DNA of 64,000 bases, taken from NCBI GenBank assembly GCA_964614945.1, contig CAZTNW010000001.1, positions 30,573 to 94,572 of the forward strand, given 5' to 3'. Positions 40,835 through 62,404 of the stretch are shown piece by piece. The DNA is from an uncultured bacterium. Lineage in GTDB: Bacteria; Caldisericota; JANLFM01. The notes under the pieces were generated by a model. It did no database searches, had not been told where the DNA came from, and saw nothing but the letters and a program-made list of their open reading frames with translations. A program made the position numbers and the translations under genes. Each line of letters starts with the position of its first letter. The stretch's first letter is position 1.

Positions 40835-41883
40835 GAAAATTTCTTATTCTTGTAATCAACCCTGGTTCGACTTCAACTAAAGTTTCCCTTTTTCTGAATG
40901 ATCAGGCCTGGAATGAGTCCACGATTCATCATAAAGAAAGCAAATTGGAGATTCTCGAGAATCTGCCGGAAAGACTCAGGGACATACACAGCTGGCTTTC
41001 CCAAGGACTTAAGCCCCAGCTCGATGGGGTTGTAGCGCGGGGAGGATTGTTGAAGCCTATTTCCTCGGGCACCTACCGGGTAAACGAGGTGATGCTAAAT
41101 GACCTTCGTTTCCGCCCGCAAGCGCAGCACGCCTCTAACCTCGGCGCTTTCATTGCTAAGGAATTAGGGGAAGAGTTCCAGGTGCCGGCATTGATCGTAG
41201 ACCCTGTGTCGGTGGACGAATTTGAGCCACTTGCCCGTTATTCGGGATTGCCCGAACTTCCCCGCAGGGCCCTTTCACATGCCTTAAACATTAAGGCCGT
41301 GGGGAGGAAGGTGGCGCAGGAACTGGGCAAGTCCCTGAGTGAGTGCAATTTTGTCGTCGGGCATTTAGGGGGCGGAATTTCTGTTGTACCGCTTAGAGGC
41401 GGACGTATAATCGATGCGAATGATGCCAATCAGGGAGGGCCGTTCTCCCCGGAAAGAGCGGGTGCTCTTCCCGTCGTCGATTTAGTCCATCTTGCTTATT
41501 CTGGCAAATATTCGGAGAAAGAACTGGTCACGCGTATGGTCAAACGGGGCGGGCTGACCGCTTATCTCGGCACGAACGATGCTAAAGAGGTAGAAGCTCG
41601 AATTCGAGCGGGAGATCGAGAGGCGCAAGAAGTTTATGAGGCGATGGCCTATCAGGTCGCTAAAGAAATCGGAGCTATGGCTACAGTGCTCAAAGGAGAG
41701 TTGGATCGGATTATCCTTACCGGAGGTTTGGCCTTTTCCTCGCTGCTCGTCCCTCTGATTGAGGAGCGAGTTGCCTTTATAGCACCCCTGCAGATCATAC
41801 CGGGAGAGGGAGAGATGGAAGCCTTGGCTTTAGGAGCCCTGAGAGTTCTAACCGGAGAGGAGGAGGCCCAAGAATATGTATAG
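40831..41883 (+). CDS. buk: butyrate (short or branched-chain acyl) kinase
   Basis: It belongs to the ASKHA family with the N-terminus LVINPGSTSTKVSLF, at about 350 aa, and is adjacent to ptb. Confidence 0.8.
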   Translation: MRKFLILVINPGSTSTKVSLFLNDQAWNESTIHHKESKLEILENLPERLRDIHSWLSQGLKPQLDGVVARGGLLKPISSGTYRVNEVMLNDLRFRPQAQHASNLGAFIAKELGEEFQVPALIVDPVSVDEFEPLARYSGLPELPRRALSHALNIKAVGRKVAQELGKSLSECNFVVGHLGGGISVVPLRGGRIIDANDANQGGPFSPERAGALPVVDLVHLAYSGKYSEKELVTRMVKRGGLTAYLGTNDAKEVEARIRAGDREAQEVYEAMAYQVAKEIGAMATVLKGELDRIILTGGLAFSSLLVPLIEERVAFIAPLQIIPGEGEMEALALGALRVLTGEEEAQEYV

Positions 41884-42793
41884 CAAGTTGCAAGAAATCG
41901 CGCAAAGAGCGGCAGGAATCCCGCTGATGACCGCTGCCGTTCCCTGCCCGGAAGAAGCAGATACACTTCTGGGAATTGATCAAGCATTCAAATCCGGTTT
42001 GATTCAGCCCCATTTGTTCGGTGACGAATCGGCAGTAAAGAAATTAGCGAGGGAATCGGGAATTGTCTTAGACGAATACGAACTGCATCATTGCCTTAAC
42101 CAGGAAGAAAGCGCTCTTTCCGCTGTTCAGTTCTGTCGAGAGGGGAAGGGAGAGATACTGATTAAAGGTTTTTTGCCGACGCCGATCTTCCTGAAGGCTG
42201 TTCTGCACAAGGAAAGGGGCATTGGCACGGGATCTCTTCTCTCGCATATAGCTGTTTTTGAGGTTCCGACAATTCCTCGCCTGCTGTTTTTAACCGACGG
42301 GGGAATGGTAGTTGCGCCGACCCTGGCGCAAAAAATAGAGATACTGCAGAACGCCCTGGGGGTTTGTCATGCTCTGGGCATCAGGGAGCCGAAAGTCGCC
42401 ATTCTGGCCTCGGTTGAAACGGTCAGCCCTGAAATTCCCGCCACTTGTGACGCTGCAGTTATTACCGCCATGTGGCGGCGCAGGCAAATTAAGGGATGCA
42501 TCCTGGATGGTCCCCTGGCCCTGGATAATGCTTTATCCCCACAGGCTCTCAAGGAGAAGGGGATCGAGAGTCCAGTGGGAGGAAATGCAGACATTCTCCT
42601 CGTTCCGAATATTGAATCAGGTAATTTGCTGGGAAAATCGTTCATTCATGTGGCCGGAGGGGTGATGGCCGGAGTTGTGCAAGGAGCACGGGTCCCAATA
42701 GTCCTGGTCTCTCGGGTGGATCCGCCTGATTCGAAGCTTTTCTCCGTAGCCATCGCCGCCATGATTAGCTGGCAGGCCAAAGAGAGGGTCTGA
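41876..42793 (+). CDS. ptb: phosphate butyryltransferase / phosphotransacylase
   Basis: It is a PTA/PTB-family protein of 305 aa, adjacent to the acyl kinase. Confidence 0.8.
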   Translation: MYSKLQEIAQRAAGIPLMTAAVPCPEEADTLLGIDQAFKSGLIQPHLFGDESAVKKLARESGIVLDEYELHHCLNQEESALSAVQFCREGKGEILIKGFLPTPIFLKAVLHKERGIGTGSLLSHIAVFEVPTIPRLLFLTDGGMVVAPTLAQKIEILQNALGVCHALGIREPKVAILASVETVSPEIPATCDAAVITAMWRRRQIKGCILDGPLALDNALSPQALKEKGIESPVGGNADILLVPNIESGNLLGKSFIHVAGGVMAGVVQGARVPIVLVSRVDPPDSKLFSVAIAAMISWQAKERV

Positions 42794-42794
42794 G

Positions 42795-43508
42795 ATAAAG
42801 GAGCGACTCCCACTTAATCGTTGTCGGATTCTTATCATCAGCGGCCCTTCAGGTTCGGGGAAAAGCGAGATCAGCCTTAACCTTGCTCTTACCCTGAATA
42901 GCACCACTGAGGTAGCGTTGATCGACTTAGATATCGTTAAACCTCTTTTTCGCCTACGCAATCATCGAGCCCAGATTGATGAGTTTGGCCTGCGTCTAGT
43001 TTCACCCGGCGGAGAGTTGGACTCAGCCGATCTGCCAATTCTACCGCAGGAGGCGATCAGGTACCTTTCTTCCCCGCACAGGGCGGTTGTTGATCTGGGA
43101 GGGGAAGCAGCCGGGGCTCGCGTATTGAAGCAGTATCAAAATTTTCTCAAGGGAGGTGACGTCTGCCATTTCTTCGTAGTAAATCCCTTTCGTCCCTTTT
43201 CCCGGACAGCAGGAGAATTAAGAACTCAACTCAACGAGATTGAAAGGAGCAGTGGAGCGAGAATCGAGGGCTTGCTCTCCAATCCGCATTTGAAGGAGGA
43301 GACAACCCTGGAAATAATCCAACAAGGGCATCTCGTGGCCTTGGAGCTTTCTCAGGCTTTCAACTTGCCGATCATTTGCCTGTGCGTGAACGAGGTTTTA
43401 ACCGCTGAGGTCTCTGCGCTGATGGAGATTCCCATTTTGCCCATGAAGCTTTTTATCCAGCCTCCCTGGGTTGAGATGCCTTTAAATTGGAAGGAGGACC
43501 ATGAATAA
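42795..43508 (+). CDS. P-loop kinase-like protein (shikimate/gluconate-kinase-type fold); start codon unresolved
   Basis: The frame is open from 42765 to 43508. It carries Walker A IISGPSGSGKS, followed 17 residues later by ALIDLD. No ATG, GTG or TTG occurs in frame before the annotated TTG at 42918, which would cut off the P-loop. The only in-frame ATT, ATC or ATA codons are upstream of it. Confidence 0.45.
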   Translation: MKERLPLNRCRILIISGPSGSGKSEISLNLALTLNSTTEVALIDLDIVKPLFRLRNHRAQIDEFGLRLVSPGGELDSADLPILPQEAIRYLSSPHRAVVDLGGEAAGARVLKQYQNFLKGGDVCHFFVVNPFRPFSRTAGELRTQLNEIERSSGARIEGLLSNPHLKEETTLEIIQQGHLVALELSQAFNLPIICLCVNEVLTAEVSALMEIPILPMKLFIQPPWVEMPLNWKEDHE

Positions 43509-43737
43509 AGTAAATATTGAGGAGGATTTCTGCAAGGCCTGTGAACTCTGCGTGGCTGTTTGCCCGGTACACGTGCTGGCCCTTTCCAACCGCCTAAATT
43601 CTTTAGGCTACCACCCTGTGGAATTAGTAGACGAGGATGGCTGCATTTCCTGCACTTTTTGCGCCAGGATTTGTCCTGATGCCGCGATCGAGGTCTATCG
43701 CAAAAGCACGGGGCCGAGGCCGGAAAGGAATAAATAA
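43501..43737 (+). CDS. 2-oxoacid:ferredoxin oxidoreductase delta subunit (2x[4Fe-4S] ferredoxin)
   Basis: It has two CxxCxxCxxxCP motifs, at 78 aa. Confidence 0.8.
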   Translation: MNKVNIEEDFCKACELCVAVCPVHVLALSNRLNSLGYHPVELVDEDGCISCTFCARICPDAAIEVYRKSTGPRPERNK

Positions 43738-44801
43738 TGAGCGAGAAGATCCTGATGAAGGGCGCTGAAGCTTGCGCTGAGGCTGCAATCAAAGCAGGCT
43801 GCAGGTTTTTCTTCGGTTACCCGATTACCCCGCAAAATGAGGTAGCTTCTTACATGTCGCGTCGCCTGCCGGAGGTCGGAGGGGTATACCTGCAGGGGGA
43901 GAGTGAAGTAGCTTCAATAAATATGGTATTAGGCGCGGCAGCTGCTGGTGCCAGAGCTATGACCTCTTCGTCTTCTCCAGGCATATCGCTGATGCAAGAA
44001 GGGATTTCTTATATGGTGGGGTGCCAGCTCCCCGCCGTGATAGTTAACTTTGTCAGAGGAGGCCCTGGCCTGGGAGGGATCGGCCCCTCTCAATCCGATT
44101 ACTTTCAGGCGGTTAAAGGAGGAGGACACGGAGATTACAACCTGGTGGTCCTCGCCCCCTCTTCTATCCAGGAGCTGATGGACTTGATGAAGGACGCCTT
44201 CGACATCGCCGATCGCTATCGCAATCCCACCATGGTTTTAGCTGACGGGATAATCGCTCAGATGATGGAGGCGGTCTCCTTCAATTTTGAGATTGATCCG
44301 CCCGCTTTGCCTCCGAAGTCCTGGGCGGTCACCGGGGCCAAAGACAGGAAGAAGAACATCATCAACTCTCTTGAATTGGACCCAGAGAAATTGGAAGCGA
44401 ACAACTGGGAGCTGCAGAAGAAATTTGCCCTCGCTAAAGTGAAAGAGGTTCGCTGGGAAGAATATCTGCTGCAGGATGCCAGCCTGGTTTTGGTTTGTTT
44501 TGGAACGGTTGCCCGGATTGCCAAAAAAGCCATCGATAATTTGCGCGAGCGCGGCATGAATGTGGGGATGATTCGTCCCATCACTCTCTGGCCTTATCCG
44601 ACAGCCCCTTTTGAGAGAGCGATCCCTCATGCCGAGCAGTTTCTTGTTCTGGAAATGAATGCCGGGCAGATGATCGAGGATGTGCGCTTAGCTGTCCAGG
44701 GTGCGAGACCTGTTCACTTTCGAGGCAAGCCAGGCGGGACGATCTTTAATCCATTAGAAGTGGAACGATTTATACTGGAGGAAGCGGTAAAGGAGGCATG
44801 A
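43737..44801 (+). CDS. 2-oxoacid:ferredoxin oxidoreductase alpha subunit
   Basis: It has the POR/VOR/KOR alpha-subunit domains, at 354 aa. Confidence 0.85.
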   Translation: MSEKILMKGAEACAEAAIKAGCRFFFGYPITPQNEVASYMSRRLPEVGGVYLQGESEVASINMVLGAAAAGARAMTSSSSPGISLMQEGISYMVGCQLPAVIVNFVRGGPGLGGIGPSQSDYFQAVKGGGHGDYNLVVLAPSSIQELMDLMKDAFDIADRYRNPTMVLADGIIAQMMEAVSFNFEIDPPALPPKSWAVTGAKDRKKNIINSLELDPEKLEANNWELQKKFALAKVKEVRWEEYLLQDASLVLVCFGTVARIAKKAIDNLRERGMNVGMIRPITLWPYPTAPFERAIPHAEQFLVLEMNAGQMIEDVRLAVQGARPVHFRGKPGGTIFNPLEVERFILEEAVKEA

Positions 44802-45556
44802 TGGAAGCACCAGTTTATACCCCTTTGTATCAACGACCGAAGTCGCTGTCGCTTGTGCACAATAGTTACTGCCCAGGATGCCATCACGGGATTGTACACA
44901 AACTTCTGGCGGAGGTAATTGACGAGCTGGGTATCCAGGAGCGAACCGTGATAATCTCTCCAGTTGGCTGTTCGGTTCGGGCCTACGATTTCTTTGAGCT
45001 GGATTCTGTACAGGCTGCTCATGGTAGAGCACCCGCTGTAGCAACCGGCATCAAGCGAGTCAATCCCCAGACCATTGTCATCACCTACCAGGGCGACGGC
45101 GACCTGGCGGCAATAGGTACCGCAGAAATTATTCATGCGGCAAATCGGGGTGAGAGAATTACCACTATTTTTATAAACAACACCAACTTTGGCATGACTG
45201 GTGGCCAGATGGCACCCACAACGCTGATTGGGCAAAAGACGGAAACCACTCCTTACGGCCGTGACCCTTTGCGCGACGGCTATCCGATTCGGGTAGCCGA
45301 GCTGATTGCCGGATTGACCGGTCCTGCTTATGTAGCCAGGATGGCGGTTTTTAACCCTGCGCAAGCCGTCAAGACCAGAAATTCCTTAAAGAAAGCGCTC
45401 CAAGCACAGATCGAAGGGAAAGGCTTCAGCTTTGTGGAAGTCCTCTCCGCTTGCCCGACCAACTGGGGTCTCTCTCCTATCCAGGCAATCAAGTGGCTCG
45501 AGGAGAATATGGTTTCCTATTATCCCCTGGGTGAATTTGTGGGAGGGCAGAAATGA
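44798..45556 (+). CDS. 2-oxoacid:ferredoxin oxidoreductase beta subunit (TPP-binding)
   Basis: It has the TPP-binding GDG motif and the Cys ligands of the proximal cluster (CPGCHHG). Confidence 0.85.
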   Translation: MMEAPVYTPLYQRPKSLSLVHNSYCPGCHHGIVHKLLAEVIDELGIQERTVIISPVGCSVRAYDFFELDSVQAAHGRAPAVATGIKRVNPQTIVITYQGDGDLAAIGTAEIIHAANRGERITTIFINNTNFGMTGGQMAPTTLIGQKTETTPYGRDPLRDGYPIRVAELIAGLTGPAYVARMAVFNPAQAVKTRNSLKKALQAQIEGKGFSFVEVLSACPTNWGLSPIQAIKWLEENMVSYYPLGEFVGGQK

Positions 45557-46104
45557 CGCACGAGGTGATTTGCGCCGGCTTTGGCGGTCAGGGCGTAATG
45601 CTTATGGGACAATTATTGGCTTATGCCGCGACGATGGAGGGGAAAGAGGCCACTTGGTATCCTTCCTATGGCCCCGAGATGCGTGGAGGCACAGCTAACT
45701 GCCAGGTCGTTATCTCCGATCAGCCCATCAATTCTCCCGTCCTGTCCCTTCCCCAGTCCGTCATCGTGCTCAATCGGCCTTCATTCGAAAAGTTTGCCTC
45801 AACTGTCGCCCCAGGTGGTCTATTGCTCGTGAACCTCTCCCTTGTCGATATAAAATCCAAAAGGACTGACTTGGAAATTCACGAAATCCCAGCCACGGAA
45901 ATTGCCCAGCAGATCGGCAGCACTTTAGTGGCCAATATCATTCTGCTTGGAGCATATTTGGAGAGGATGAAATCGGTGAGATTCGAATCAGTAGAGGCGG
46001 TTTTACAAAAGACAATGAGCGGCAGGAGAGAAAAATTCATTCCCCTCAATATGGAGGCTCTTCATGCCGGAAGAGAGTTTATCCGGAAAAGCACGTCCGA
46101 ATAG
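45553..46104 (+). CDS. 2-oxoacid:ferredoxin oxidoreductase gamma subunit
   Basis: It has the gamma-subunit fold with GFGGQGV, at 183 aa. Confidence 0.8.
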   Translation: MTHEVICAGFGGQGVMLMGQLLAYAATMEGKEATWYPSYGPEMRGGTANCQVVISDQPINSPVLSLPQSVIVLNRPSFEKFASTVAPGGLLLVNLSLVDIKSKRTDLEIHEIPATEIAQQIGSTLVANIILLGAYLERMKSVRFESVEAVLQKTMSGRREKFIPLNMEALHAGREFIRKSTSE

Positions 46105-46152
46105 TCTTTTCACCTGAATCTTCCGATGGAAGGAAATAGGAGGAAGCAGAAG

Positions 46153-47235
46153 ATGGTTTCTTCAGCGCGCCTTTTGGAAGAGTTCTTGCAAGCAATCCAG
46201 ATCCCTTCAGTTTCAGGAGCGGAAGAAAGCTTCGCCCGGTATGTCTGGGAAAAACTTAGACAATTAGGACTGCAAGCGGGTCGCGATGAAGCGGGGAACG
46301 TCTTCGCCGTCCTTGAAGGAGACTCAGCTCGGCGCCCGATTCTTTTCAATGCTCACCTGGATACCGTGCCCACTGGCCCCGTTCATTGCCGCCTGGACGG
46401 TGATTGGATAACGACTGAGGGGAACTCGATCCTGGCGGCGGACGACAAATCTTCGATCAGCGTAATTTTAGAAACCCTGCGAACTTTAGAGGAAAATAGG
46501 GATCCCCACGGCAGAATAGAGATCCTCTTGACCGTGGAAGAGGAAACCGAGATGAGAGGAGCGAAGAACTTCGACCTGGGCCGTTCAATGGCCGAATGTT
46601 TCTTCGTACTGGACTATACGGGAGCGGTAGGAGGTTTTGTGGCCAGTGCCCCATTCGCCAATTCCCTCCGTTTTATTTTCCAAGGCAAAGCAGCTCACGC
46701 AGGGGCTGAACCTGAAAAAGGCATCTCGGCGATCCTTGCCCAGTCCCGGGCTATCAGTAAAATGTCCCTCGGCCGCATCGATCATGAGACCACATCCAAC
46801 ATCGGCACGATGAAGGGAGGAAGCGCAGACAATGTAGTCCCGGATTATGCAGAGATGACCGGCGAAGTGCGCAGCCGGAATAGGGACAAACTAGCAAAGG
46901 TGACGGAATTAATGCGTGTTACGGCAGAGAGAGAAGCCGCCAGGCTGGGCGCCAGTGTAGAGGTCATTGCCCGTGAGGATTACCAGGGATACTGCATTGA
47001 GGATGACGATCCTTCTCTTATCTGGTTAAAGAAGGCGGCCGCTGATTTGTTCCTCGAATTGAAGCCTTGCCACGCGGGGGGAGCTTCCGACGCAAATGTG
47101 TACCGGGCAAGAGGGAAGAGCTCAATCGTGCTTGGCTCCGGTTTTTATTCCCCCCACACCTTTGAAGAAAAAGTATCAGTTTCTGAAATGCTGAAGCTTC
47201 AACAGCTTCTTCACGCTATAATCAGTCATGCCTAA
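46153..47235 (+). CDS. M20 family metallopeptidase (peptidase T-like)
   Basis: It has M20 metal-ligand motifs (NAHLDTVP, DDKSSI, EEETEM). The ATG at 46153 follows AGGAGG. Confidence 0.7.
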   Translation: MVSSARLLEEFLQAIQIPSVSGAEESFARYVWEKLRQLGLQAGRDEAGNVFAVLEGDSARRPILFNAHLDTVPTGPVHCRLDGDWITTEGNSILAADDKSSISVILETLRTLEENRDPHGRIEILLTVEEETEMRGAKNFDLGRSMAECFFVLDYTGAVGGFVASAPFANSLRFIFQGKAAHAGAEPEKGISAILAQSRAISKMSLGRIDHETTSNIGTMKGGSADNVVPDYAEMTGEVRSRNRDKLAKVTELMRVTAEREAARLGASVEVIAREDYQGYCIEDDDPSLIWLKKAAADLFLELKPCHAGGASDANVYRARGKSSIVLGSGFYSPHTFEEKVSVSEMLKLQQLLHAIISHA

Positions 47236-52324: not shown

Positions 52325-53683
52325 GTGGGATACGTAGAGACTGTATTCGAAGAGGTTCAGAGAAGAAATCAAAATGAGCCGGAATTTTTGCAAGCAGTGC
52401 GTGAAGTCTTTGAATCCGTCAAGCCTGTTTTTGAGAAGTACCCGCATTTTAGCGAGGCCCGTATTTTGGAGAGGATTGTTGAGCCAGAGAGAGTGGTGAT
52501 TTTCCGGGTTCCCTGGATAGACGACAGAGGGCAATTTCGTGTAAATCGTGGATATCGGATTGAAATGAACAGCGCGATTGGCCCCTACAAAGGCGGCGTT
52601 CGCTTTCATCCCTCAGTCAATTTGAGTATTCTTAAATTCCTTGCTTTTGAGCAGGTTTTCAAAAATAGCCTCACCACTCTTTCCATGGGCGGAGGCAAGG
52701 GCGGATCTGATTTTGATCCGAAAGGCAAGACCGAAAATGAGGTGATGAATTTTTGCCAGAGCTTCATGCTCGAATTGCAGCGGCACATCGGTCCAAACAC
52801 GGATGTGCCCGCAGGGGATATCGGGGTAGGCGCACGCGAGATCGGCTTTATGTTCGGGCAATACAAGCGCATCCGCAATGAATTCACCGGCGTGCTTACG
52901 GGAAAAGGCCTTAATTGGGGAGGTTCTCTTATCAGGCCCGAAGCCACCGGGTACGGCTGTGTATACTTTGCTTTCGAGATGTTGAAGACGACAGGCGAAG
53001 ATTTGCAGGGAAAGGTCTGTCTGGTATCCGGCAGCGGAAACGTCGCCCAGCATACCGTTCAGAAACTGCTGGACCTCGGCGCCAAGCCTGTGAGCCTCTC
53101 TGATTCGGATGGTTTCATCTACGACCCGGAAGGGATAGATCGCGAGAAGTTGGCCTGGGTGATGGAATTGAAGAATTTACGCCGGGGAAGGATTCGGGAG
53201 TACCAGGATCAGTTCAAGGGAGCAAGGTATACCGCTGCTGACACCGTTTTACCTTACAATCCTCTCTGGGCAATTCCCTGCGATTGTGCTTTCCCGAGCG
53301 CAACGCAGAATGAAATAAACGGGAAAGATGCGGAAAACCTTTTACAGGGTGGGTGCAAGTTAGTGGCAGAGGGCGCTAACATGCCTACCAATCCTGAAGG
53401 GGTGGAAAAGTTCCTTGCCGCCAGGATCCATTATGGTCCGGCCAAAGCAGCTAACGCCGGTGGAGTTGCCACCTCCGGCCTCGAGATGTCGCAAAACAGT
53501 ATGAGGCTTAACTGGCCGCGCGAAGAGGTGGATAGGCGCCTGCGCGATATCATGATCGCCATCCATAAGAACTGTTTTGAGACCGCGAAGCTCTTCGGGG
53601 TCCCGGGGAACTACGTGATTGGGGCGAATATTGCCGGCTTCCTCAAAGTAGCTAACGCCATGCTTGATCAAGGATTAGTGTAG
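52325..53683 (+). CDS. gdhA: glutamate dehydrogenase (NADP-type, GdhA-like)
   Basis: It has the GDH signature KGGVRFHP...MGGGKGGSDFDPKG. The GTG start follows AGGAGGGG. Confidence 0.9.
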   Translation: MGYVETVFEEVQRRNQNEPEFLQAVREVFESVKPVFEKYPHFSEARILERIVEPERVVIFRVPWIDDRGQFRVNRGYRIEMNSAIGPYKGGVRFHPSVNLSILKFLAFEQVFKNSLTTLSMGGGKGGSDFDPKGKTENEVMNFCQSFMLELQRHIGPNTDVPAGDIGVGAREIGFMFGQYKRIRNEFTGVLTGKGLNWGGSLIRPEATGYGCVYFAFEMLKTTGEDLQGKVCLVSGSGNVAQHTVQKLLDLGAKPVSLSDSDGFIYDPEGIDREKLAWVMELKNLRRGRIREYQDQFKGARYTAADTVLPYNPLWAIPCDCAFPSATQNEINGKDAENLLQGGCKLVAEGANMPTNPEGVEKFLAARIHYGPAKAANAGGVATSGLEMSQNSMRLNWPREEVDRRLRDIMIAIHKNCFETAKLFGVPGNYVIGANIAGFLKVANAMLDQGLV

Positions 53684-56002
53684 GGATAGCGGGCGGTTAA
53701 GGGCCTTCTCGAAAAAACCTACTGCCCGGTCGGTATCTCCGTCCATAATGACCGAGAGGTTGGAATTTTCTACGACCTTGGGAACATGGATAACCCTGAT
53801 CGTCGAGTCCGATTTATGCGCAGCGGCGGTAAAACGTCGCAGACTGTTATGGGCGTTACGGAAAAAACTTTCATTGAAGACAATTCCGCTATCGTCCGGA
53901 TAGAGGGGCAAATAGCGGATCCCTGCCTCCACCAAATCCTGGAAGAAATGCGTACCGAAGGATAACTCGGGCACGTAGTCTTTCTTCTTCCGAGCTACCT
54001 CGATAAGCATTGCCGTATTGTTGATGTCGCTGTAGCCAACCCGGACACCCAACTTTATATCCCTACTTCCCCAGCGCCCCGGACCGATCAAAATGAATTT
54101 CTGCCGGGGCAATCTGGCGTTCAGCTCGCTTATTGATCGTCCTACCTGGATTAAATCCGAGAGCGTGGAGAGCCGATCGTACTCTTCCGGATCCACATAG
54201 ACGATAAATTCGATCCCCTTTACCTGTGCCGTGTTCACATAGCGGTTAGCGGTGAATAGGATGTCTTTCCTCGGAATGTTTTCCGGAATCGAGACCCTTA
54301 TTGTGCCGCCGACCTGGCTTTGCGGCCGGCACTGTAGCAGGTAGAGCTTGTGGATATCCCCGTCACAAGCGAATTCGATATCCACCGGGAAGCCGAGGGT
54401 CTCCTCCAGAATACCAAATATATCTTTGATCATCGGGATAAAAGGGGCCCCGCCGGAAAGGAGACGAGCAAAGGTTACTACGGGTTTGCCTTCCGATAAC
54501 CTGATTACCGTGCCAGTTGGCGGGATAAGCTGGCCGTCGTGATAGATGGAGATGATCTGGGAAAGGGCGGGGAATTCAGAACCTACCCTCTCGATTACTC
54601 TCTCCACCGGAAGGGTCTCCAACCTTCTTGTCTCCAGATTGATGACATCCATGTTCTTCTGCGAGTACCAGAGGGTCTCCTCCGGGGTTACGTTTACTCT
54701 CAGGCCGGGCTGGCCGGGACTGACCAATACGGGATAATCATCTCCTACCCGGTCCACTGCCCGAGTGCCGAGTCCGGTAACCATGCGGATGATCCCATCC
54801 TTCTTCTTTATGCGGGGAGACCAGCGGAATTCGTTACAAGAGAAGGCCACTCCGGCGAAGGCTGGGAAAAAGTAGTTCCCTGCCCGCCGGCCGACTGCCT
54901 CCTGGATCATGATGGCCATCTCCTCGTTGAAATCCAATAGCCCTCGCTCTCTGCGGTATTCGATCGGGTCGGGGGAGAAAACGCTGGCGTAAATTTCCAA
55001 AATGGCATCAACTAAGGCGCTCAATCTTTCTTTTTTGCTCCCCTGATTGGCGAGAAAGAGGCTTTTGTATTTTCCGGCGAAAGATGAGCCGAAGGTATCC
55101 TCGAGCAGGCTGGACGATCGGACGATCAACGGTCTCTCGCCGAAGTCATCCAGCACGAGGTTCAGGCCGGCGATTATACCGGGCGATAGCTGCGAGTTCT
55201 TGAAGATTTGCTCCAAATAGGGATATTCCTGTCGGATCTCCCCCGGATCTCGGTATTTGATGATCGGCATTTCCTCTAAGGCGTTAAAATGCAGGAAGTC
55301 CATGATCGCATCCGAGGCCAGATACCATGTCTTCGGGACCGTCAGATTCCGCAAGGAGATCGTTTCTTTCTTGGTCAGCAGAATTTTTTCCGCCCGAAAT
55401 AAACCCGCTGCTTTTCCTCCGAGCTTTCCGTTTCCCGAACCGGGGCCGATCGTCTGAGCGAGGATGGTGGCAAAATCCAGGACGGAGACATACTTCTTCG
55501 TCACGTTCAGGTAATCCAGGTCATCGCTGAAGAAACGCCGAATCAGGGCTACCTTGGTGCTGATGGCTTCCTCGGGAGAAAGGTTTTTTTGTGCATCCGG
55601 CATCTGCGCGAAGCGGCGCACGGCGTTGGAAATTTCCGCGAGAGAGACATCTCTTTTTTCCGTGGCCATCGTGAGGAATCGAGCCTGTTCATTTTTGAGC
55701 CAGATCCCCACCATCGTGTTGATTATTTCAAGGGATAGCTCTTTGGCCGCAATCTGAAAGACCTCTTCGATGAATCGATCAAGTACCAACGGGTCTAACC
55801 GCTGAATCGGTTCGTTCTCGCCGACAGGGTGTAAGAGTTGATCAGTTGTCGAACTGAGGCGTCTCATGAGGTCCTGAGCGGAGGAGATATTGCACTTGAA
55901 GAGGTAATTCATCATCTTGCGCCCAATCCGATCGAGGAGATTCGGGTTGGTGTCGCGCAAGAGATCGACAATCACCTTCCACTCAGGTTTCGGCTTACTC
56001 AA
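53675..56002 (-). CDS. PEP-synthase/PPDK-like ATP-grasp (PPDK_N) domain protein with a C-terminal swivel-like domain; lacks the PEP/pyruvate TIM-barrel domain
   Basis: At 775 aa it has GKAAGL and the motif IVRSSSLLEDTFGSSFAGKYKSLFL (compare VAVRSSATxEDLPxASFAGQQ of PEP synthase), plus ...DIEFACDGDIHKLYLLQCRPQ. The C-terminal domain carries GPGRWGS...GTHFFQDL. It overlaps the downstream paralogue by 4 nt. Confidence 0.65.
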   Translation of the reverse strand: MSKPKPEWKVIVDLLRDTNPNLLDRIGRKMMNYLFKCNISSAQDLMRRLSSTTDQLLHPVGENEPIQRLDPLVLDRFIEEVFQIAAKELSLEIINTMVGIWLKNEQARFLTMATEKRDVSLAEISNAVRRFAQMPDAQKNLSPEEAISTKVALIRRFFSDDLDYLNVTKKYVSVLDFATILAQTIGPGSGNGKLGGKAAGLFRAEKILLTKKETISLRNLTVPKTWYLASDAIMDFLHFNALEEMPIIKYRDPGEIRQEYPYLEQIFKNSQLSPGIIAGLNLVLDDFGERPLIVRSSSLLEDTFGSSFAGKYKSLFLANQGSKKERLSALVDAILEIYASVFSPDPIEYRRERGLLDFNEEMAIMIQEAVGRRAGNYFFPAFAGVAFSCNEFRWSPRIKKKDGIIRMVTGLGTRAVDRVGDDYPVLVSPGQPGLRVNVTPEETLWYSQKNMDVINLETRRLETLPVERVIERVGSEFPALSQIISIYHDGQLIPPTGTVIRLSEGKPVVTFARLLSGGAPFIPMIKDIFGILEETLGFPVDIEFACDGDIHKLYLLQCRPQSQVGGTIRVSIPENIPRKDILFTANRYVNTAQVKGIEFIVYVDPEEYDRLSTLSDLIQVGRSISELNARLPRQKFILIGPGRWGSRDIKLGVRVGYSDINNTAMLIEVARKKKDYVPELSFGTHFFQDLVEAGIRYLPLYPDDSGIVFNESFFRNAHNSLRRFTAAAHKSDSTIRVIHVPKVVENSNLSVIMDGDTDRAVGFFEKALNRPLSLH

Positions 56003-58971
56003 GCTCCTGCTCCTTCTGATTTATCAGACCTCAGGACGATCCCCCGTCCGGTACGTCCATCCATCTTGACGATGAAGCCCTCAGAAGATTTTACCACCCT
56101 TAAGTGGTCCGTTTCCTTGAGAGAGGGTTGGGTTTCTAACCAATTCCAATCTAAACCGGATTTTTCATTGTGCGCGCTGACAGTGAAATAGCCGATGCGC
56201 AAAGAAGTCAGGTTCTGGAAAAAGTGCGAACCTTGAGAAGGATCTGGATGCATCCCGGGTAAATCAACTTCCACGATTACTCTGGCCTGACTGATCTGGT
56301 TCCATTTAACCGGAATGCCCAGCCAGGGATCGGAAGAACCCCAGCGCCCCGGACCAATAAGGATAGAGCTGTCGCCTTCTTTTTTCAGCCAATCATTGAG
56401 CAGGCCGATTTCTTGAGCGATTTGGGCGTTATCCTTCGGGTGGAAACTCTGCAGCTTTACGTAGATCAGGTGGTGTATGGGCGGCAGAACTCCGTTCCCC
56501 AATACATGGTCGCTGAAAATGAGAGCGTCTTTCACCGTCTCGGTTAGATCCATACTGACGAGCTCATCGCCGACGACCAGAGGACGGATCTGAAGAAAGC
56601 CGAAATTCACCGGAAACGACTTTTGGTCGTTCCATGAGATGGCAAATTCAATCTCTACAGGATTCCCCATCGCCTGCTTTGCCGTATCCAGCAGATTTAA
56701 AAGAAGGGGAGAGAGGGGGAACGCCTCGCGCTTGAGAATGGGAGCAAAGGTTAAAATCCTCGGACCAGGGGCGGCGATTCCGTCAAGGACTCTTTCATCT
56801 TCCCGGTTATAGGTGGAGGCGATCCAGTCCAGAACCCCGTCCAACTCCGCTTCCTTGAGGTCCAGTTTCACCAGGTATTGATCCTCCTCTGAGAAAGCGG
56901 AGGAGTAACCGGGATGCATATCTATGGCGTAATATTCCCGCTGGGAGTATTTCAGCGTACTGGCAGAGGAGTTGAATTGAGGCAAGATCTGTGGGTAACG
57001 GGGAGAAAACCTCAGGGATACTCCGCCCTCCACGATTGTTTTCCCCAATCCCAGGGCTATATAAGCTACTCCATCTTCTGGTGTGGCGTGACCGAACGGG
57101 TAAAAATTGTATGAACGTGCCACGCCGGAGAGGTGGGGGTAAAATCGCCATCCATGTCTTTCGCCCACAACCTCCTGCACGATGACGGCCATTTTCTCCT
57201 CCTCCGGCAGATGGTGGGTCGATTCTATATAAGTCCGGGCCCGGTGAAAAAAAGTAGAGGCATAGACCAGCTTGATAGCGTTGGTCAGACTGAGGAAACG
57301 CGCATCGGCATCCGGTTCATTATTGGGAATCATTTTGGTGATATAGATGCCGGCGAAGGGCTGATAAAGAGCGTCCTCAAGCAGGCTGGAGGAGCGGACA
57401 GCGAGAGGGAAACGCTCCTCCAGGATGAAATGACGTAGATCCCCGACCAGGGTAGGGGAGAGTTCCGCACCCAGGAATGCACCAGCTATTCTGATGTCGG
57501 ATTTCTCCTCCAAAGCAAACTTAAGAAGTCTGTTTCTCTGAAGAAAATCCTCGAAAATCTCAGTGGAAAGGATTAGTGCTCTCGGTATGCCCACTTCTAC
57601 TTCGGGAAATGTGGTGGGGGAGAAGTTGGAGGCAAGGATCTTGTCCATGAAAGCCAATCCGCGAGCTTTTCCTCCCATCGAGCCCTCTCCAATTCTGCAG
57701 AAATGCCAGGTCTCTATGGGAACGCGGCGGGAAAAAGGGACAACGTTTCCCCTCTGCCTCTTTTGCCTCCAGCTATCGAGCACTTCCTTGATTTCGCGGC
57801 GAATATCTCCTTTTATTTCTCGGGAGGAGAGTTCCTTGGCCAGGCCCAATTCCGTGCGAGCCCAAAGCCAGCGAGTGATATCACCGTTCCGGAACTGGCG
57901 CTCAATAACGCCGGGGGGCAGACTCTCGATAATCGAACTCATGACCTCCAAATTGGGCACCCGGGCTATCTCATGCTGGTCATGATCACGGAATACGAGG
58001 TCCCCGAAGCCGAAGAACTCAAGAAGAAGCAGACGGAAGTCCTCGATCAAGGTTGGGGAGTGTTTATGCAAAAAGCCGGCATTCAGACTGCTTGCGTAGG
58101 CTCTTGTCCTCAGCTCGCTCGATTGCAGCAGGATGGGGAGATGTGGAAGCTCCTCCCTGGCTGAACGAGCAAACTCCAGTCCAGCTAAATTATCCACCTC
58201 TTTGCCCCTGGAAAAGCTGACGTCTGTTATCAGGCCGAGTAAGTGAGATTTAAATTTCTGAAAGATCTGCAGCCCCTCTTCGTAGTCCGTTGCCAGGTGT
58301 ACGCGAGGCCTGCCTCTTTGCCTCAGCAGTCTCTCAGTGAAACTCAGATTCTCCTTAAGAAGCCCATGGGTTAATTTCAAAAGCTCGTCAAAAAGAAAGG
58401 TAAGATAGGCGGAATAGAACTGCACCGAATCCTCGATGACTAGGAGATTGGGCACGCCTATCAGCTCCGTGTCATAGGCAGCGTTTCTTCGGTCCTCGAT
58501 GAACTGGATGATGCCGACAAGGATTTTGCCGTCTCCCTGCCAGAGAAAGATTTTATCGACCGACTTTCCGTCATTTGCCTCAAGAAGGCGCTCCAGCTCA
58601 GGAGTCTGAAAAGCCAGAATTACTACGGGAAGGCCCGGAGAAATTTGCTTTGCTTGCGACCCGAAGGCGAAAGGGTTTATCTCGCCGACCCTCTGCATCG
58701 CTATAACGAGATCGAATCCTTCCCTCTTTATTTCCTCAAGAGCCGTTTCTGCATCCGGCGTCCTGTGGATAACCGGCACATAGCCCAGATTTTTCTCCTG
58801 ATAAGCCTGGTTTAAAAGATCGATCAGGCGACCATCCTCTTCCAGAATAAAGGCGTCATACAGGCTGGCCACAAGGAGAACCTTGCGCACCTTGAAGGGC
58901 ATTAACCTCTGTAGCAGGATTGTTTGGTCATCGGAAAACAACCATTCCCTGTCTGAGTAATTCTTCTCCAT
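55999..58971 (-). CDS. response-regulator receiver fused to a PEP-synthase-like ATP-grasp (PPDK_N) and swivel-like domain
   Basis: At 990 aa it has an N-terminal pseudo-receiver (KVLLVAS...FDLVIAMQ, lacking the acidic pocket and the phospho-Asp). A canonical receiver follows (LLVIEDS...LITDVSF...PILLQSS...FLHKHSP). Then come PPDK_N motifs (GGKARGLAFM, AVRSSSLLEDALYQPFAGIYI, FGFLQIRP) and a C-terminal GPGRWGS...GSHFFQNL. Confidence 0.65.
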   Translation of the reverse strand: MEKNYSDREWLFSDDQTILLQRLMPFKVRKVLLVASLYDAFILEEDGRLIDLLNQAYQEKNLGYVPVIHRTPDAETALEEIKREGFDLVIAMQRVGEINPFAFGSQAKQISPGLPVVILAFQTPELERLLEANDGKSVDKIFLWQGDGKILVGIIQFIEDRRNAAYDTELIGVPNLLVIEDSVQFYSAYLTFLFDELLKLTHGLLKENLSFTERLLRQRGRPRVHLATDYEEGLQIFQKFKSHLLGLITDVSFSRGKEVDNLAGLEFARSAREELPHLPILLQSSELRTRAYASSLNAGFLHKHSPTLIEDFRLLLLEFFGFGDLVFRDHDQHEIARVPNLEVMSSIIESLPPGVIERQFRNGDITRWLWARTELGLAKELSSREIKGDIRREIKEVLDSWRQKRQRGNVVPFSRRVPIETWHFCRIGEGSMGGKARGLAFMDKILASNFSPTTFPEVEVGIPRALILSTEIFEDFLQRNRLLKFALEEKSDIRIAGAFLGAELSPTLVGDLRHFILEERFPLAVRSSSLLEDALYQPFAGIYITKMIPNNEPDADARFLSLTNAIKLVYASTFFHRARTYIESTHHLPEEEKMAVIVQEVVGERHGWRFYPHLSGVARSYNFYPFGHATPEDGVAYIALGLGKTIVEGGVSLRFSPRYPQILPQFNSSASTLKYSQREYYAIDMHPGYSSAFSEEDQYLVKLDLKEAELDGVLDWIASTYNREDERVLDGIAAPGPRILTFAPILKREAFPLSPLLLNLLDTAKQAMGNPVEIEFAISWNDQKSFPVNFGFLQIRPLVVGDELVSMDLTETVKDALIFSDHVLGNGVLPPIHHLIYVKLQSFHPKDNAQIAQEIGLLNDWLKKEGDSSILIGPGRWGSSDPWLGIPVKWNQISQARVIVEVDLPGMHPDPSQGSHFFQNLTSLRIGYFTVSAHNEKSGLDWNWLETQPSLKETDHLRVVKSSEGFIVKMDGRTGRGIVLRSDKSEGAGA

Positions 58972-58992: not shown

Positions 58993-59027
58993 AAAAAGAA
59001 AAAGCGCGGAGGGAATCCGCGCTTTTT
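58993..59027 (-). terminator. intrinsic terminator (bidirectional in form) after the minus-strand gdh gene
   Basis: The hairpin GCGCGGAGGGAAUCCGCGC is flanked by an A-run upstream and a T-run downstream. It lies only 21 nt from the start of the 990-aa gene. Confidence 0.6.
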
Positions 59028-59052
59028 CTTTAGTCCGCGCTTATCAGGTTGG

Positions 59053-60339
59053 TTATATCCAACCCCTCATCTTACAGGCTTCGGCGACTCGCTGAATGGC
59101 GATCATGTAAGCAGCATCACGCACATAGACTTTCTCTTCACGGGCCAGGGCGGAAACCTTCAAGTAGGCGTCAGTCATTTTTGTATCCAGTTTAGCCAGA
59201 GCCTCATCCTTTGTCCAGAAGTAGTTCATGTTGCACTGGACTTGTTCGAAATAACTACACGTCACTCCGCCGGCATTAGCGAGAAAATCCGGGACCACGA
59301 AAATGCCCTTCTCCTTGAGGATTTTGTCCGCTTCGGGAGTGGTGGGACCATTGGCACCCTCCACCATCAGGCGGACGGAATTGGAAATGCGTGCAGCTGT
59401 ATCTCCGGTCACCTGATTCTCTAAGGCCGCAGGAACCAGAATCTCCGCCTCCTGCTCGATCCAGGCCTCTCCTTCGAGGATTTCATAGCCGCATTCCGAG
59501 GCCTTCTTCTTTTGAATGCCGCCGAAAGGGTCTGTAAAAGAGCACAGCTCTTCCAAATTTATCCCGTTCTTCTTGCGGAAAGTATAGGATCTCTGCTCCT
59601 CTTGATCCCAGCAGGATACACAGATGGGTGTTCCACCGTACTCGCTGTATAATTTCACCGCGTGTTGAGCGACATTGCCGAACCCCTGGAAGGCTGCCCT
59701 GGTTTTTTTAATATCGATTCCCAGCTCACGCAAGGCTTCACGCATGACATAAACAACGCCATAGCCCGTGGCCTCCTTCCTGCCCAGTGATCCCCCTACG
59801 CCAAGAGGCTTACCGGTGATGACTCCCGGATAATGACCCCTAAAGATATTCTCGTACTCATCCAGCATCCACACCATATGTTTACCGGAAGTCATTACGT
59901 CGGGAGCAGGAACATCCTGGATAGGGCCTATATTGGCGGCAATTTGGCGGATCCATCCGCGGCACAGGCCTTCTTGTTCTCTCTCGGAAAGATGGTGCGG
60001 ATCACAGATAATTCCGCCCTTCCCCCCTCCAAGAGGAATATCCACCACTGAACATTTCCAGGTCATCCACATGGCTAATGCTCGTACCGTATCGACGGTC
60101 TCCTGCGGGTGAAAGCGTATCCCGCCCTTGCATGGGCCGCGGGCGTCGTTATGCTGGACGCGGAATCCCTGGAAGATTTTGAAGCCCCCATCGTCCATAC
60201 GAACCGGGATTAGAAAATGGAATTCTCTCATTGGGTTTCGTAAAAGATCGCGGGTTGCTTGGTCCAACCCCAGCTTCTCGGCTACGCCATCAAATTGTTG
60301 CTGGGCCATTTTGAAGGCGTTGAAAGACTTGTCAGCCAT
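59053..60339 (-). CDS. gdh: Glu/Leu/Phe/Val dehydrogenase family protein (glutamate dehydrogenase, second copy)
   Basis: It has KGGIRFHP...PLGGGKGG and a Rossmann fold. The preferred start is MADKSF, which follows AAGGAG. Confidence 0.85.
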   Translation of the reverse strand: MADKSFNAFKMAQQQFDGVAEKLGLDQATRDLLRNPMREFHFLIPVRMDDGGFKIFQGFRVQHNDARGPCKGGIRFHPQETVDTVRALAMWMTWKCSVVDIPLGGGKGGIICDPHHLSEREQEGLCRGWIRQIAANIGPIQDVPAPDVMTSGKHMVWMLDEYENIFRGHYPGVITGKPLGVGGSLGRKEATGYGVVYVMREALRELGIDIKKTRAAFQGFGNVAQHAVKLYSEYGGTPICVSCWDQEEQRSYTFRKKNGINLEELCSFTDPFGGIQKKKASECGYEILEGEAWIEQEAEILVPAALENQVTGDTAARISNSVRLMVEGANGPTTPEADKILKEKGIFVVPDFLANAGGVTCSYFEQVQCNMNYFWTKDEALAKLDTKMTDAYLKVSALAREEKVYVRDAAYMIAIQRVAEACKMRGWI

Positions 60340-60491
60340 AACTATCTCCTTCGCCGAACTTGATGTGTTTTTAGAACAAAAAGAGGAATGGAATACTTCC
60401 ATTGCCCCTTACTTAATTGTATGATATCCGAAGGCATTGTCAAGGAATTCTCCTACTCTGCTTTACTTGGTTTTGCGCTCCTCTGCCTGGG

Positions 60492-61762: not shown

Positions 61763-62404
61763 TTAAAGTCTTTGCGCCAGGAGCCTTGCCCAGGCATGAC
61801 GGTGTGGTGAAGAGTAGCGGTAGTCCAAAGAATCGCCTTCCGCATAGTAGATTACTTTCAAATCGGAAAAATAAGAGCGTAGTTCACCGGGGGAAAAGAA
61901 GTAGAGATGGCCACCATCACGGGTAAGAAAATGCCCTATACCCTGTGCTTTCAATCGCATCTGCGCGGCAAAGTGACCAGGATCTTGCTCGGTGTAGGCA
62001 GCACAGGCAAGAAGACCGCCGGATTTAAGTCCCGAAGAAATCGAGTTAGCCAGTTCAGCAATTTTCTCAGGAGGGAAAAAGGTGAGGGACCAGAAAGAGC
62101 ATATCAGCTCGTAAAAATTCTCAGAGATGGGGAATTGAGCCAAATCCAGACGATAAGTTTTAATCTTTAAGCTTTCCTCCCTCGCCCTTTCCTTGAGGCG
62201 ATTGATCGCTAAACGGGAAGCATCGACTGCAGTCATCTCAAGACCCAAGCGGGCGAGAAAGATTGTCTCCCTCCCCTCTCCCATACCTAAATCCAGGCCG
62301 ATCCCCCGCCGAGGAAGCAGGAATTGATGGGATAGAAGGAGATCGTCGGGCCGTTCTCTCCATTGGTCTGTTCTCTCTTCATATAGGTTTTGCCTGGAGT
62401 TCAT
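61763..62404 (-). CDS. class I SAM-dependent methyltransferase (TehB-like)
   Basis: It has the motif GLDLGMGEGRETIFLARLG and a Rossmann MTase fold, at 213 aa. Confidence 0.75.
   Translation of the reverse strand: MNSRQNLYEERTDQWRERPDDLLLSHQFLLPRRGIGLDLGMGEGRETIFLARLGLEMTAVDASRLAINRLKERAREESLKIKTYRLDLAQFPISENFYELICSFWSLTFFPPEKIAELANSISSGLKSGGLLACAAYTEQDPGHFAAQMRLKAQGIGHFLTRDGGHLYFFSPGELRSYFSDLKVIYYAEGDSLDYRYSSPHRHAWARLLAQRL

Follow-up and report, generated by a model that had tools for sequence, protein, structure and literature searches.

We showed that two adjacent genes, here called A and B, encode paralogous proteins with a PPDK_N ATP-grasp domain, and that they are tied to glutamate dehydrogenase (GDH) genes both in the window (the whole stretch of 64,000 nucleotides analysed) and in many other genomes. 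Judged from sequence and gene context, A and B probably control or assist GDH, a central nitrogen enzyme. The specific proposal, to which we assign a probability of about 0.4, is that they would form a heteromer that modifies GDH, driven by ATP and controlled by a signal, with an invariant histidine as phosphocarrier. The features of the locus are listed below in window coordinates.

60416..60443, minus strand: sigma-70-like promoter match upstream of GDH, TTGACA-16-TACAAT, 11/12, a consensus match only
59053..60339, minus strand: upstream GDH, Thermococcus/Pyrococcus/RocG type, 428 aa from M22; Pfam PF02812 and PF00208, PDB 1euz (E 1.6e-121)
58995..59031, minus strand: intrinsic-terminator-like hairpin separating the upstream GDH gene from B, with a U-run after a 16-bp stem
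55999..58971, minus strand: gene B, 990 aa, ATG start; pseudo-receiver, receiver, linker, PPDK_N ATP-grasp and C-terminal domain (C-dom)
58522..58890, minus strand: REC1 of B (residues 28-150), Asp-less pseudo-receiver by Pfam PF00072, hhalign against CheY and family alignment
58012..58455, minus strand: REC2 of B (residues 173-320), receiver by hhalign against CheY, AF2 and Foldseek
57697..58011, minus strand: linker of B (residues 321-425), two short strands, then mostly helical
56557..57681, minus strand: ATP-grasp domain of B (PPDK_N, residues 431-805), by Pfam PF01326 and conserved residues
56017..56538, minus strand: C-dom of B (residues 812-985), with GPGRWGS loop and invariant H916 (codon 56224-56226)
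55999..56002, minus strand: 4-nt A/B overlap TTGA, formed by the stop codon of B (TGA) and the start codon of A (TTG)
53675..56002, minus strand: gene A, 775 aa, TTG start; helical N-terminal domain, PPDK_N ATP-grasp and C-dom
55433..56002, minus strand: N-terminal domain of A (residues 1-190), conserved and all-helical
54299..55426, minus strand: ATP-grasp domain of A (PPDK_N, residues 193-568), by Pfam PF01326 and conserved residues
53693..54271, minus strand: C-dom of A (residues 578-770), with GPGRWGS loop and invariant H685 (codon 53948-53950)
52325..53683, plus strand: second GDH, E. coli GdhA/NADP type, 452 aa; Pfam, and PDB 5ijz/4fcc (E 1e-161 to 1e-174)

The A/B pair is flanked in the window by two GDH genes. 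The upstream GDH open reading frame is 449 aa long and runs to 60402, and its homologues begin at query residues 21-22. The second GDH gene and A are convergent and share 9 nt at their 3' ends. An earlier sequence-only reading, which called the role of the pair unknown, had overlooked this linkage and its conservation. Among the 58 species-representative loci with enough upstream DNA to be counted, 52 have a GDH gene at most 4.5 kb upstream of A (same strand in 48) and six have none within that distance. The linked loci come from many bacterial phyla and from Thermoplasmata archaea. Unbiased neighbour clustering of 80 species-representative loci gave only three recurrent families, namely A/B, GDH (55 loci) and a metallophosphoesterase (21 loci) whose gene is convergent and lies just downstream of A. 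Neither a further pathway enzyme nor a separate subunit with a swivel histidine and substrate-binding domains was conserved in these 80 neighbourhoods. A second module, in which a GdhA-type GDH gene is followed by a receiver-bearing B, was found in L028, L066, L072, L083 and the cultured Geothrix oryzae. Such adjacency shows a functional link between A/B and GDH; it does not by itself make GDH the substrate. The hairpin that lies between these two genes, the upstream GDH gene and gene B, folds with -30.3 kcal/mol (z -5.1), and a comparable hairpin with a T-run follows the GDH stop codon in 18 of 54 loci; a terminator-like element at this place would hold B-A expression under the GDH level. Amino-acid-fermentation genes also lie near the pair in the window organism.

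The 4-nt overlap, from which co-translation and possibly a heteromer had been proposed, is real. The B/A junction reads GCTTGAGT, with a GAAGGAG sequence whose end lies 7 nt upstream of the TTG start of A. In favour of this start, conservation of the A N-terminus begins at K5, and W8 does not vary (48 A homologues); with the alternative chosen by one gene caller, a GTG at codon 10 (P0121, 766 aa), W8 would be lost. For B, one gene caller selected a TTG at 58941. Overlaps of 4 or 8 nt were found in about 20 further A/B loci, and single-chain B-A fusions with two PPDK_N domains and two C-doms occur in L071, P0241, P0242, P0243 and P0265, which makes translational coupling and a heteromer plausible. 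The tandem recurs in other genomes and is identical on an independent 89.5-kb assembly. Because of that assembly and of thousands of full-length A and B homologues of equal lengths, the arrangement is no assembly artefact. In one Fermentibacteria genome, A and B lie apart.

Pfam PF01326 (PPDK_N) was detected in both proteins, with 181 bits for A and 110 bits for B at a cut-off of 27. The two proteins are 27% identical over A190-761 and B428-978 (E 2e-40), a span that includes the C-dom. The expectation of tandem ATP-grasp paralogues with a common C-terminal domain was therefore borne out, and the named motifs VRSSSLLED..FAG, LQxRP, GPGRWGS and [ST]HFFQ[DN]L are all present; the ATP-grasp domain, described as N-terminal, is central in both proteins. 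The ATP-site residues K197, R295, D541/E543, Q557 and R559 do not vary among 48 A homologues. In 49 B homologues, K435, R526, E775 and Q794 are invariant and R796 is kept in at least 90%. The window proteins themselves carry the GGK Lys, the VRSS Arg, D/E-x-E and the Gln and Arg of LQxRP, and both ATP-grasp domains appear catalytically intact. We take the conserved residues to be the equivalents of K22, R92, E323, Q335 and R337 of PPDK.

Pfam gave no match in A or B to the PF00391 swivel domain (G-G-x-T-S-H-A-A motif), whose status had been left as a question, nor to the PF02896 PEP/pyruvate TIM barrel, which had correctly been read as missing. The NCBIfam PEP synthase models scored 16-54 bits, with cut-offs of about 600-880. 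By these profile searches, A and B are members of the PPDK_N ATP-grasp superfamily and are not PEP synthase, PPDK or a rifampin-phosphotransferase-type dikinase. Some homologues are labelled 'phosphoenolpyruvate synthase' or 'pyruvate, water dikinase'; an ordinary enzyme of this kind that lost domains by misassembly or frameshift has a probability close to nil, being refuted by the domain searches, by the thousands of homologues of the same length and architecture and by the identical locus in the independent assembly. Neither a lack of PPDK_N homology nor a full-length PEP synthase was seen with Pfam, NCBIfam or that assembly.

The C-dom is about 190 aa long and carries the signature PGRWG ... 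S-x-G-[ST]-H-F-F; PGRWG, a Glu and S-x-G-x-H-F-F are invariant in A and B alike. Its histidine is present in 149/149 best cluster representatives and is the only histidine invariant in both families. In the predicted structure, H685 of A lies at the N-terminus of a helix, after a low-confidence loop (654-684). From this invariance and position we infer that the histidine may be a phosphocarrier. Across 1,932 clusters at 50% identity the C-dom was found only C-terminal to PPDK_N. It has no match in Pfam or in PDB sequences and no detectable similarity to the phosphohistidine swivel domain; searches with whole models gave no fold match for it, though matches of the ATP-grasp domain could mask a weak one.

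The N-termini differ, as had been noticed. The suggested fusion to receiver domains holds for B, a response-regulator fusion, and fails for A, which has the all-helical domain of about 190 aa and no receivers; this domain has no Pfam, PDB-sequence or fold match. Only B bears receivers in the window pair, and most B homologues are without them. PF00072 matches B residues 42-123, within REC1, at 28.8 bits, under the gathering score of 30.2. The phospho-acceptor Asp of REC1 is absent, since CheY D57 aligns with M92 (hhalign), a position that is variable across the B family. REC2 was undetected by the Pfam receiver HMM. Its profile aligns with CheY (hhalign, E 2.6e-4) such that D250/S284/K303 fall on D57/T87/K109, its acidic pair E180-D181 is canonical and at least 90% conserved, and its AF2 secondary structure is (beta-alpha)5. 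By these alignments, REC2 is a receiver with a CheY-type D/S/K triad and REC1 is a pseudo-receiver. The N-terminus of B matches the tandem receivers of PleD (Foldseek, E about 1e-6); in B the Asp-less receiver precedes the one with the D/S/K triad and the output is an ATP-grasp enzyme, while the receiver order of PleD is the reverse. DUF5752 matches the linker region in some B homologues and not in window B. As in the earlier reading, no histidine-kinase-like open reading frame was seen in the window, where the search was a crude H-box regex only. As a response regulator, B seems to be an orphan.

Long A variants carry an extra, unannotated N-terminal extension of about 150 aa and a Pol-beta-type nucleotidyltransferase domain, found as PF01909 in the long A of L052 (34 bits) and in the P0241 fusion. 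This domain (PF01909; G-S ... D-x-D) is absent from window A, which ends after the C-dom. The receivers, the nucleotidyltransferase and N-terminal extension of long A, the metallophosphoesterase and the terminator-like hairpin may be read as regulator-like features.

Compared with known systems, A and B share with PEP synthase and PPDK the PPDK_N domain and the Lys/Arg/Glu/Gln/Arg residues of the ATP site, but they lack the swivel phosphohistidine domain and the TIM barrel, and their NCBIfam equivalog scores are far under the cut-offs. The proposed likeness to rifampin phosphotransferase (RPH-Lm; PDB 5hv1, 5hv6, 5fbs) stands in that Rph is among the closest structures; it does not extend to the rifampin-binding domain or the C-terminal PF00391 swivel histidine, which A and B are without. 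RPH confers resistance as a single chain; A and B are paralogues linked to GDH, with an undescribed C-dom and, in A, a helical N-terminal domain. In HpeHI of Rhodococcus, one subunit has the ATP-grasp domain and the other the swivel histidine and substrate-binding domains (PMC12167813). Unlike such two-component dikinases (HpeHI, AcvAB, phenylphosphate synthase), A and B are both ATP-grasp plus C-dom paralogues, with no swivel subunit nearby and with GDH rather than aromatic catabolism as context. The combination of receiver and PPDK domains, enriched in Asp-less receivers, is known from censuses (Galperin 2018, PMC5847659; Maule 2015, PMC4395418); a response-regulator census terms such fusions 'Bacteroides-like', and the passages of PMC5847659 and PMC4395418 on them give neither function nor genomic context. 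The logic proposed here is like that of regulators that modify central metabolic enzymes and are encoded with them or act on them, such as GlnE/GlnD (glutamine synthetase), AceK (isocitrate dehydrogenase) and PDRP (PPDK): A/B would use ATP to modify a central nitrogen or carbon enzyme encoded beside them, and some variants of A/B have a nucleotidyltransferase domain and a phosphoesterase partner. This is an analogy only, with no sequence relationship save the generic Pol-beta-type nucleotidyltransferase fold of the long variants, absent from the window.

In the proposed mechanism, A and B would be paralogous subunits of one heteromeric ATP-dependent enzyme. The invariant histidine of the C-dom would take a phosphoryl group from ATP, in place of the missing swivel domain, and GDH would most likely be controlled post-translationally, either by transfer of this group or by a similar covalent modification, so that one or both flanking GDHs could be activated or inactivated. 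B would bring in a two-component signal via its PleD-like tandem receivers, and the helical N-terminal domain of A is a candidate target-binding module. A 1996 report on Bacteroides reportedly describes trans-acting genes downstream of gdhA, which may be the same system as A/B; the gene downstream of B. thetaiotaomicron gdhA is a candidate B homologue. Operon partners of abundant enzymes can be metabolic enzymes too, which counts against a GDH modifier. Alternatively, A and B could resemble Rph, HpeHI, phenylphosphate synthase and PigC in being a small-molecule dikinase or ligase, here of glutamate/2-oxoglutarate metabolism. Their ATP-grasp and His-carrying domains would then phosphorylate a metabolite or activate it, for instance at an enol or carbonyl oxygen in a 2-oxoacid or related compound, with GDH as pathway neighbour and not as target. 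To our knowledge, all characterised PPDK_N enzymes besides PPS and PPDK act on small molecules or glucans. The closest structures (HpeI, Rph), the operon-like layout with a metabolic enzyme, the nearby fermentation genes and the existence of two-polypeptide dikinases (PMC12167813) also fit. We nevertheless consider it somewhat unlikely: no Rph/HpeH-like substrate-binding domain or swivel domain was detected in A or B, no other pathway enzyme is conserved in the neighbourhood, the terminator-like hairpin stands between the pair and gdh, and the receiver and nucleotidyltransferase fusions, the extension of long A and the phosphoesterase partner are more typical of regulatory enzymes.

A non-covalent action on the GDH hexamer, as ATP-dependent activase, assembly factor or scaffold, is distinctly unlikely. 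The ATP-grasp domains, by binding or hydrolysing ATP, would then drive a conformational change that switches GDH on or off, which would suit the synteny and the large conserved non-catalytic domain of each subunit (N-terminal domain of A, linker of B). In the Bacteroides report, GdhA produced in E. coli reportedly had no activity without the downstream region provided in trans, which counts for such an activase. The invariant histidine and the fully conserved phosphotransfer-type ATP-grasp residues, however, argue for chemistry, and the metallophosphoesterase gene and nucleotidyltransferase domain suggest a covalent cycle. That the adjacency reflects shared nitrogen or energy regulation only, with A and B as signalling enzymes for another target or product (another protein, a nucleotide signal), agrees with the 6/58 loci without upstream GDH, with the separated genes of the Fermentibacteria genome and with the orphan-regulator look of B. 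We regard it as very improbable, since 90% linkage across Thermoplasmata and many bacterial phyla, with two different GDH types each paired with a family member, would hardly be expected unless the genes had a direct functional tie.

In conclusion, the A/B pair, here proposed as a possible GDH modifier, is part of a widespread, unstudied gene cluster tied to GDH.

Two adjacent genes on the minus strand, A and B, which encode paralogous PPDK_N (PF01326) ATP-grasp proteins, were found as the sequence-only reading had described them, and a glutamate dehydrogenase (GDH) gene flanks the pair on each side.

Genes of the A/B locus (window coordinates, strand, description)
59053..60339, minus, Thermococcus/RocG-type GDH gene upstream of the pair (PDB 1euz, E 1.6e-121)
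55999..58971, minus, gene B, 990 aa, ATG start
53675..56002, minus, gene A, 775 aa, TTG start
52325..53683, convergent with the pair, E. coli GdhA-type GDH gene downstream of it (E about 1e-174)

At the B/A junction GCTTGAGT, the TTG start of A lies on the TGA stop of B, which gives the 4-nt overlap noted earlier, and overlaps of 4 or 8 nt were found in about 20 related loci. A GAAGGAG stretch ends 7 nt 5' of this TTG. One gene caller began A at the GTG of codon 10 (P0121, 766 aa), by which W8 would be lost; an alignment of 48 homologues, in which conservation begins at K5 and W8 never varies, makes the TTG start credible. A and B are 27% identical over about 570 residues (E 2e-40), and the aligned part includes the shared C-terminal domain (C-dom), so their paralogy held. 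Single-chain B-A fusions of 1,484-1,654 aa, each with PPDK_N and C-dom in two copies, were found in one locus (L071, 2799..7754) plus at least four protein clusters (P0241, P0242, P0243 and P0265). They are good evidence of physical cooperation between A and B and, together with the 4-nt overlap, make the suggested translational coupling and heteromer plausible. An independent 89.5-kb assembly carries the identical arrangement and thousands of homologues match A and B in length, which rules out an assembly artefact. A and the GdhA-type GDH gene converge with 9 nt of their 3' ends in common (53675..53683), which leaves no room for separate terminators. The upstream GDH ORF (449 aa) probably starts at M22 (position 60339), giving 428 aa, because its homologues align from this residue.

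The PPDK_N domain was detected by Pfam (cut-off 27) in A (residues 193-568, 181 bits) and in B (431-805, 110 bits), and neither the phosphohistidine swivel domain (PF00391) nor the PEP/pyruvate TIM barrel (PF02896) matched in either protein. The expected homology and the missing barrel were therefore confirmed, and A and B, for want of the swivel domain that defines rifampin-phosphotransferase-type dikinases, do not count among these. PF00391-type proteins were also sought among the related loci for a comparison profile and none was present. That A and B are ordinary PEP synthases, or full-length ones truncated by misassembly, is refuted: the NCBIfam models for PEP synthase, Rph and PigC gave at most 54 bits versus cut-offs of about 600 to 1,700, and the independent assembly has the identical arrangement. 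A Lys, Arg, Glu, Gln and Arg, which we take to be the counterparts of the ATP/Mg site residues of PPDK, are invariant in the A homologues; in B four of the five are invariant and R796 is kept in at least 90% of homologues. On these residues, both proteins look catalytically competent. Their AlphaFold2 models were usable (A, pLDDT 79.6 and pTM 0.74; B, pLDDT 86.9 and pTM 0.81).

C-dom occupies residues 578-770 of A and 812-985 of B. An Asn, P-G-R-W-G, L-G, Ile, Glu, S-x-G-x-H-F-F and Tyr are invariant in it across both families, and no histidine other than the one in this motif (A H685, B H916) is invariant in both; all of the 149 best cluster representatives keep it. In both models this residue lies at the N-terminus of a helix, and in A it comes directly after a low-confidence loop (654-684). 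When 1.84 billion representatives were searched by profile, C-dom turned up in 1,932 clusters, and among the 150 listed matches that were long enough to judge it stands at the C-terminal end of A- or B-sized proteins. The nucleotidyltransferase weakly seen in one relative (L003) was ruled out as the identity of C-dom, since long A proteins carry the nucleotidyltransferase as an extra domain past C-dom.

The two proteins differ at their N-termini. B opens with a tandem receiver that matched PleD by Foldseek. The first receiver (residues 28-150) lacks the Asp, with M92, a variable position, opposite D57 of CheY; the second (173-320) has D250, S284 and K303 opposite CheY D57, T87 and K109 (hhalign E 2.6e-4), and Pfam misses this phospho-acceptor receiver. 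Residues 1-190 of A form a conserved, all-helical domain for which no match was found anywhere. The response-regulator fusion, which the sequence-only reading stated for the duplicated architecture as a whole, is therefore confined to B. Most B relatives are about 580 aa long and have no receivers. Three receiver-bearing B homologues (P0392, P0397 and P0423) matched DUF5752 (PF19027) in the linker that joins the second receiver to the ATP-grasp domain, and the equivalent region of B in the window (residues about 320-420) did not. A in the window is a short form. Most of its relatives are about 1,060 aa, with an unannotated N-terminal extension of about 150 aa and a C-terminal Pol-beta-type nucleotidyltransferase domain (for example L052, 9530..12688, PF01909, 34 bits), and this long form occurs in most of the loci L016-L086. 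A cognate histidine kinase had been reported missing from the window, and a crude H-box regex likewise saw no such ORF there; no such family recurs as a neighbour in 80 related loci.

The sequence-only reading left the role of the pair blank and overlooked its link to GDH, which is very strong. GDH genes again adjoined A/B in the first four relatives' loci examined, which come from distant lineages including Caldisericia, Fermentibacteria and Chrysiogenia. The proposed search for the same arrangement found the GDH-linked pair in at least 589 species-representative genomes of many bacterial phyla and Thermoplasmata, with about 1,900 sequence clusters. Among the best 80 loci of these carriers, 58 had enough upstream DNA for upstream counts; in 52 of these a GDH gene is located upstream of A at a distance of up to 4.5 kb (same strand in 48), and in 35 the gene directly upstream of A is B-like. 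Annotation-free ORF clustering of the 80 loci gave only three recurrent neighbour families, namely A/B (77 loci), GDH (55) and a metallophosphoesterase of about 287 aa (21). The last lies directly downstream of A in 20 loci (L016, L027, L031, L033, L042, L050, L052, L055-L057, L059, L060, L072-L074, L078-L081 and L085); 19 of these genes are convergent. This PF00149-like protein adjoins long-form A in bacteria and Thermoplasmata (for example L052, 12718..13578), and no homologue was found in the window.

A second module, in which a GdhA-type GDH gene is followed by a receiver-bearing B, was found in L028, L066, L072, L083 and the cultured Geothrix oryzae, and the window holds both GDH modules together. 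In G. oryzae (AP027079.1; L087, 6557..11015) a 449-aa GDH is followed after 95 nt by the B homologue, and several Geothrix species carry this module. Class I SAM-methyltransferase genes are found close to A/B in the window (61763..62404, minus), L001 (9147..9920) and L002 (12453..13262), and were rejected as a conserved partner as they form no conserved family in the 80 loci. In Fermentibacteria (L002 / L010, 15021..22343), a methyltransferase gene and a GdhA-type GDH gene sit between A and B, and beyond B lie an NfnAB/GltD-like pair, a gene for a REC-AsnC-type protein and NuoE/F-like genes; this gene set suggests a glutamate-oxidation redox module. Elsewhere in the window (40831..47235, plus), genes for an acetate/butyrate-kinase-family protein, PTA_PTB, a three-subunit 2-oxoacid:ferredoxin oxidoreductase and an M20 peptidase fit a peptide- or amino-acid-fermenting host.

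Candidate expression signals (window coordinates, strand, description)
60443..60416, minus, sigma-70-like consensus match TTGACA-16-TACAAT upstream of gdh (11/12)
58995..59031, minus, terminator-like hairpin between the upstream gdh and B (16-bp stem, U-run, -30.3 kcal/mol, z -5.1)

The hairpin lies about 20 nt ahead of the B start and was not listed by the built-in terminator scan of the window; in 18 of 54 related loci a like hairpin with a T-run is found after the GDH stop. With the sigma-70-like match, it would allow high GDH expression and lower read-through into B-A.

Baggio and Morrison reportedly showed in 1996 that a segment of about 3 kb downstream of Bacteroides gdhA is required in trans for activity. 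A receiver-bearing B-type gene would fit such a segment. The B. thetaiotaomicron locus tags considered led to no such gene (BT1971 is a catalase), and the top 120 profile matches to GdhA-linked B, most of them nameless, included Geothrix and no Bacteroides by name. Our literature search found nothing published on A/B or on their association with GDH; REC-PPDK fusions were met only as mentions in two censuses. One terms them a 'Bacteroides-like combination' (PMC5847659), and the other gives Asp-less receivers as enriched among them (PMC4395418). HpeHI shows that two-component dikinases exist (PMC12167813).

Given the very strong GDH link and the regulator-like features, we commit ourselves to a reading, at a probability of roughly 40%, in which A and B form an ATP-driven heteromeric modifier of GDH controlled via the second receiver of B. 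Every characterised PPDK_N enzyme, to our knowledge, hands ATP phosphate to a mobile histidine domain. A and B lack this domain and have instead C-dom, which is unrelated to it and has an invariant histidine; most simply read, C-dom would be the phosphocarrier through that histidine. A dikinase that acts on small molecules in the metabolism of glutamate or 2-oxoglutarate would likewise accommodate the apparently competent ATP-grasp domains and the GDH neighbours; it is somewhat unlikely, because the receivers of B, the N-terminal extension and nucleotidyltransferase domain of long A, the partner phosphoesterase and the attenuating hairpin fit a regulatory modifier better than a pathway enzyme. 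The GDH link would also suit a non-covalent ATP-dependent activase or scaffold, which we consider distinctly unlikely beside the invariant C-dom histidine, and the receivers would suit co-regulated signalling enzymes with another target, which is decidedly improbable beside the GDH linkage across many bacterial phyla and Thermoplasmata. As for the modification of GDH itself, the two GDHs of the window may, by homology, differ in cofactor preference and together run a futile transhydrogenase cycle, which would offer a rationale for reciprocal control.

More broadly, we propose tentatively that A and B may be the core of an unrecognised, widespread ATP-driven post-translational control of GDH, which would combine PPDK_N with a new histidine phosphocarrier domain. 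Its hosts would be anaerobic bacteria that ferment peptides, together with Thermoplasmata archaea; receivers, or other regions added at the N-terminus, would supply its inputs, and in many lineages the added nucleotidyltransferase domain and metallophosphoesterase may set up a cycle of modification and demodification. Such a system would be to GDH what GlnE/GlnD is to glutamine synthetase, and would account for the trans-acting genes of 1996.

GDH stands where carbon and nitrogen metabolism meet, and small hexameric bacterial GDHs are, as far as we know, generally held to be without dedicated protein regulators. The widespread A/B family is both uncharacterised and mis-annotated; its hosts include abundant protein-degrading lineages of sediments, digesters and guts. 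If confirmed, GDH control by A and B would put a new layer of control on the catabolism of nitrogen and amino acids, show that the dikinase ATP-grasp module can pair with a non-canonical histidine domain, and call for the re-annotation of thousands of 'PEP synthase' and 'PEP/pyruvate-binding protein' genes.
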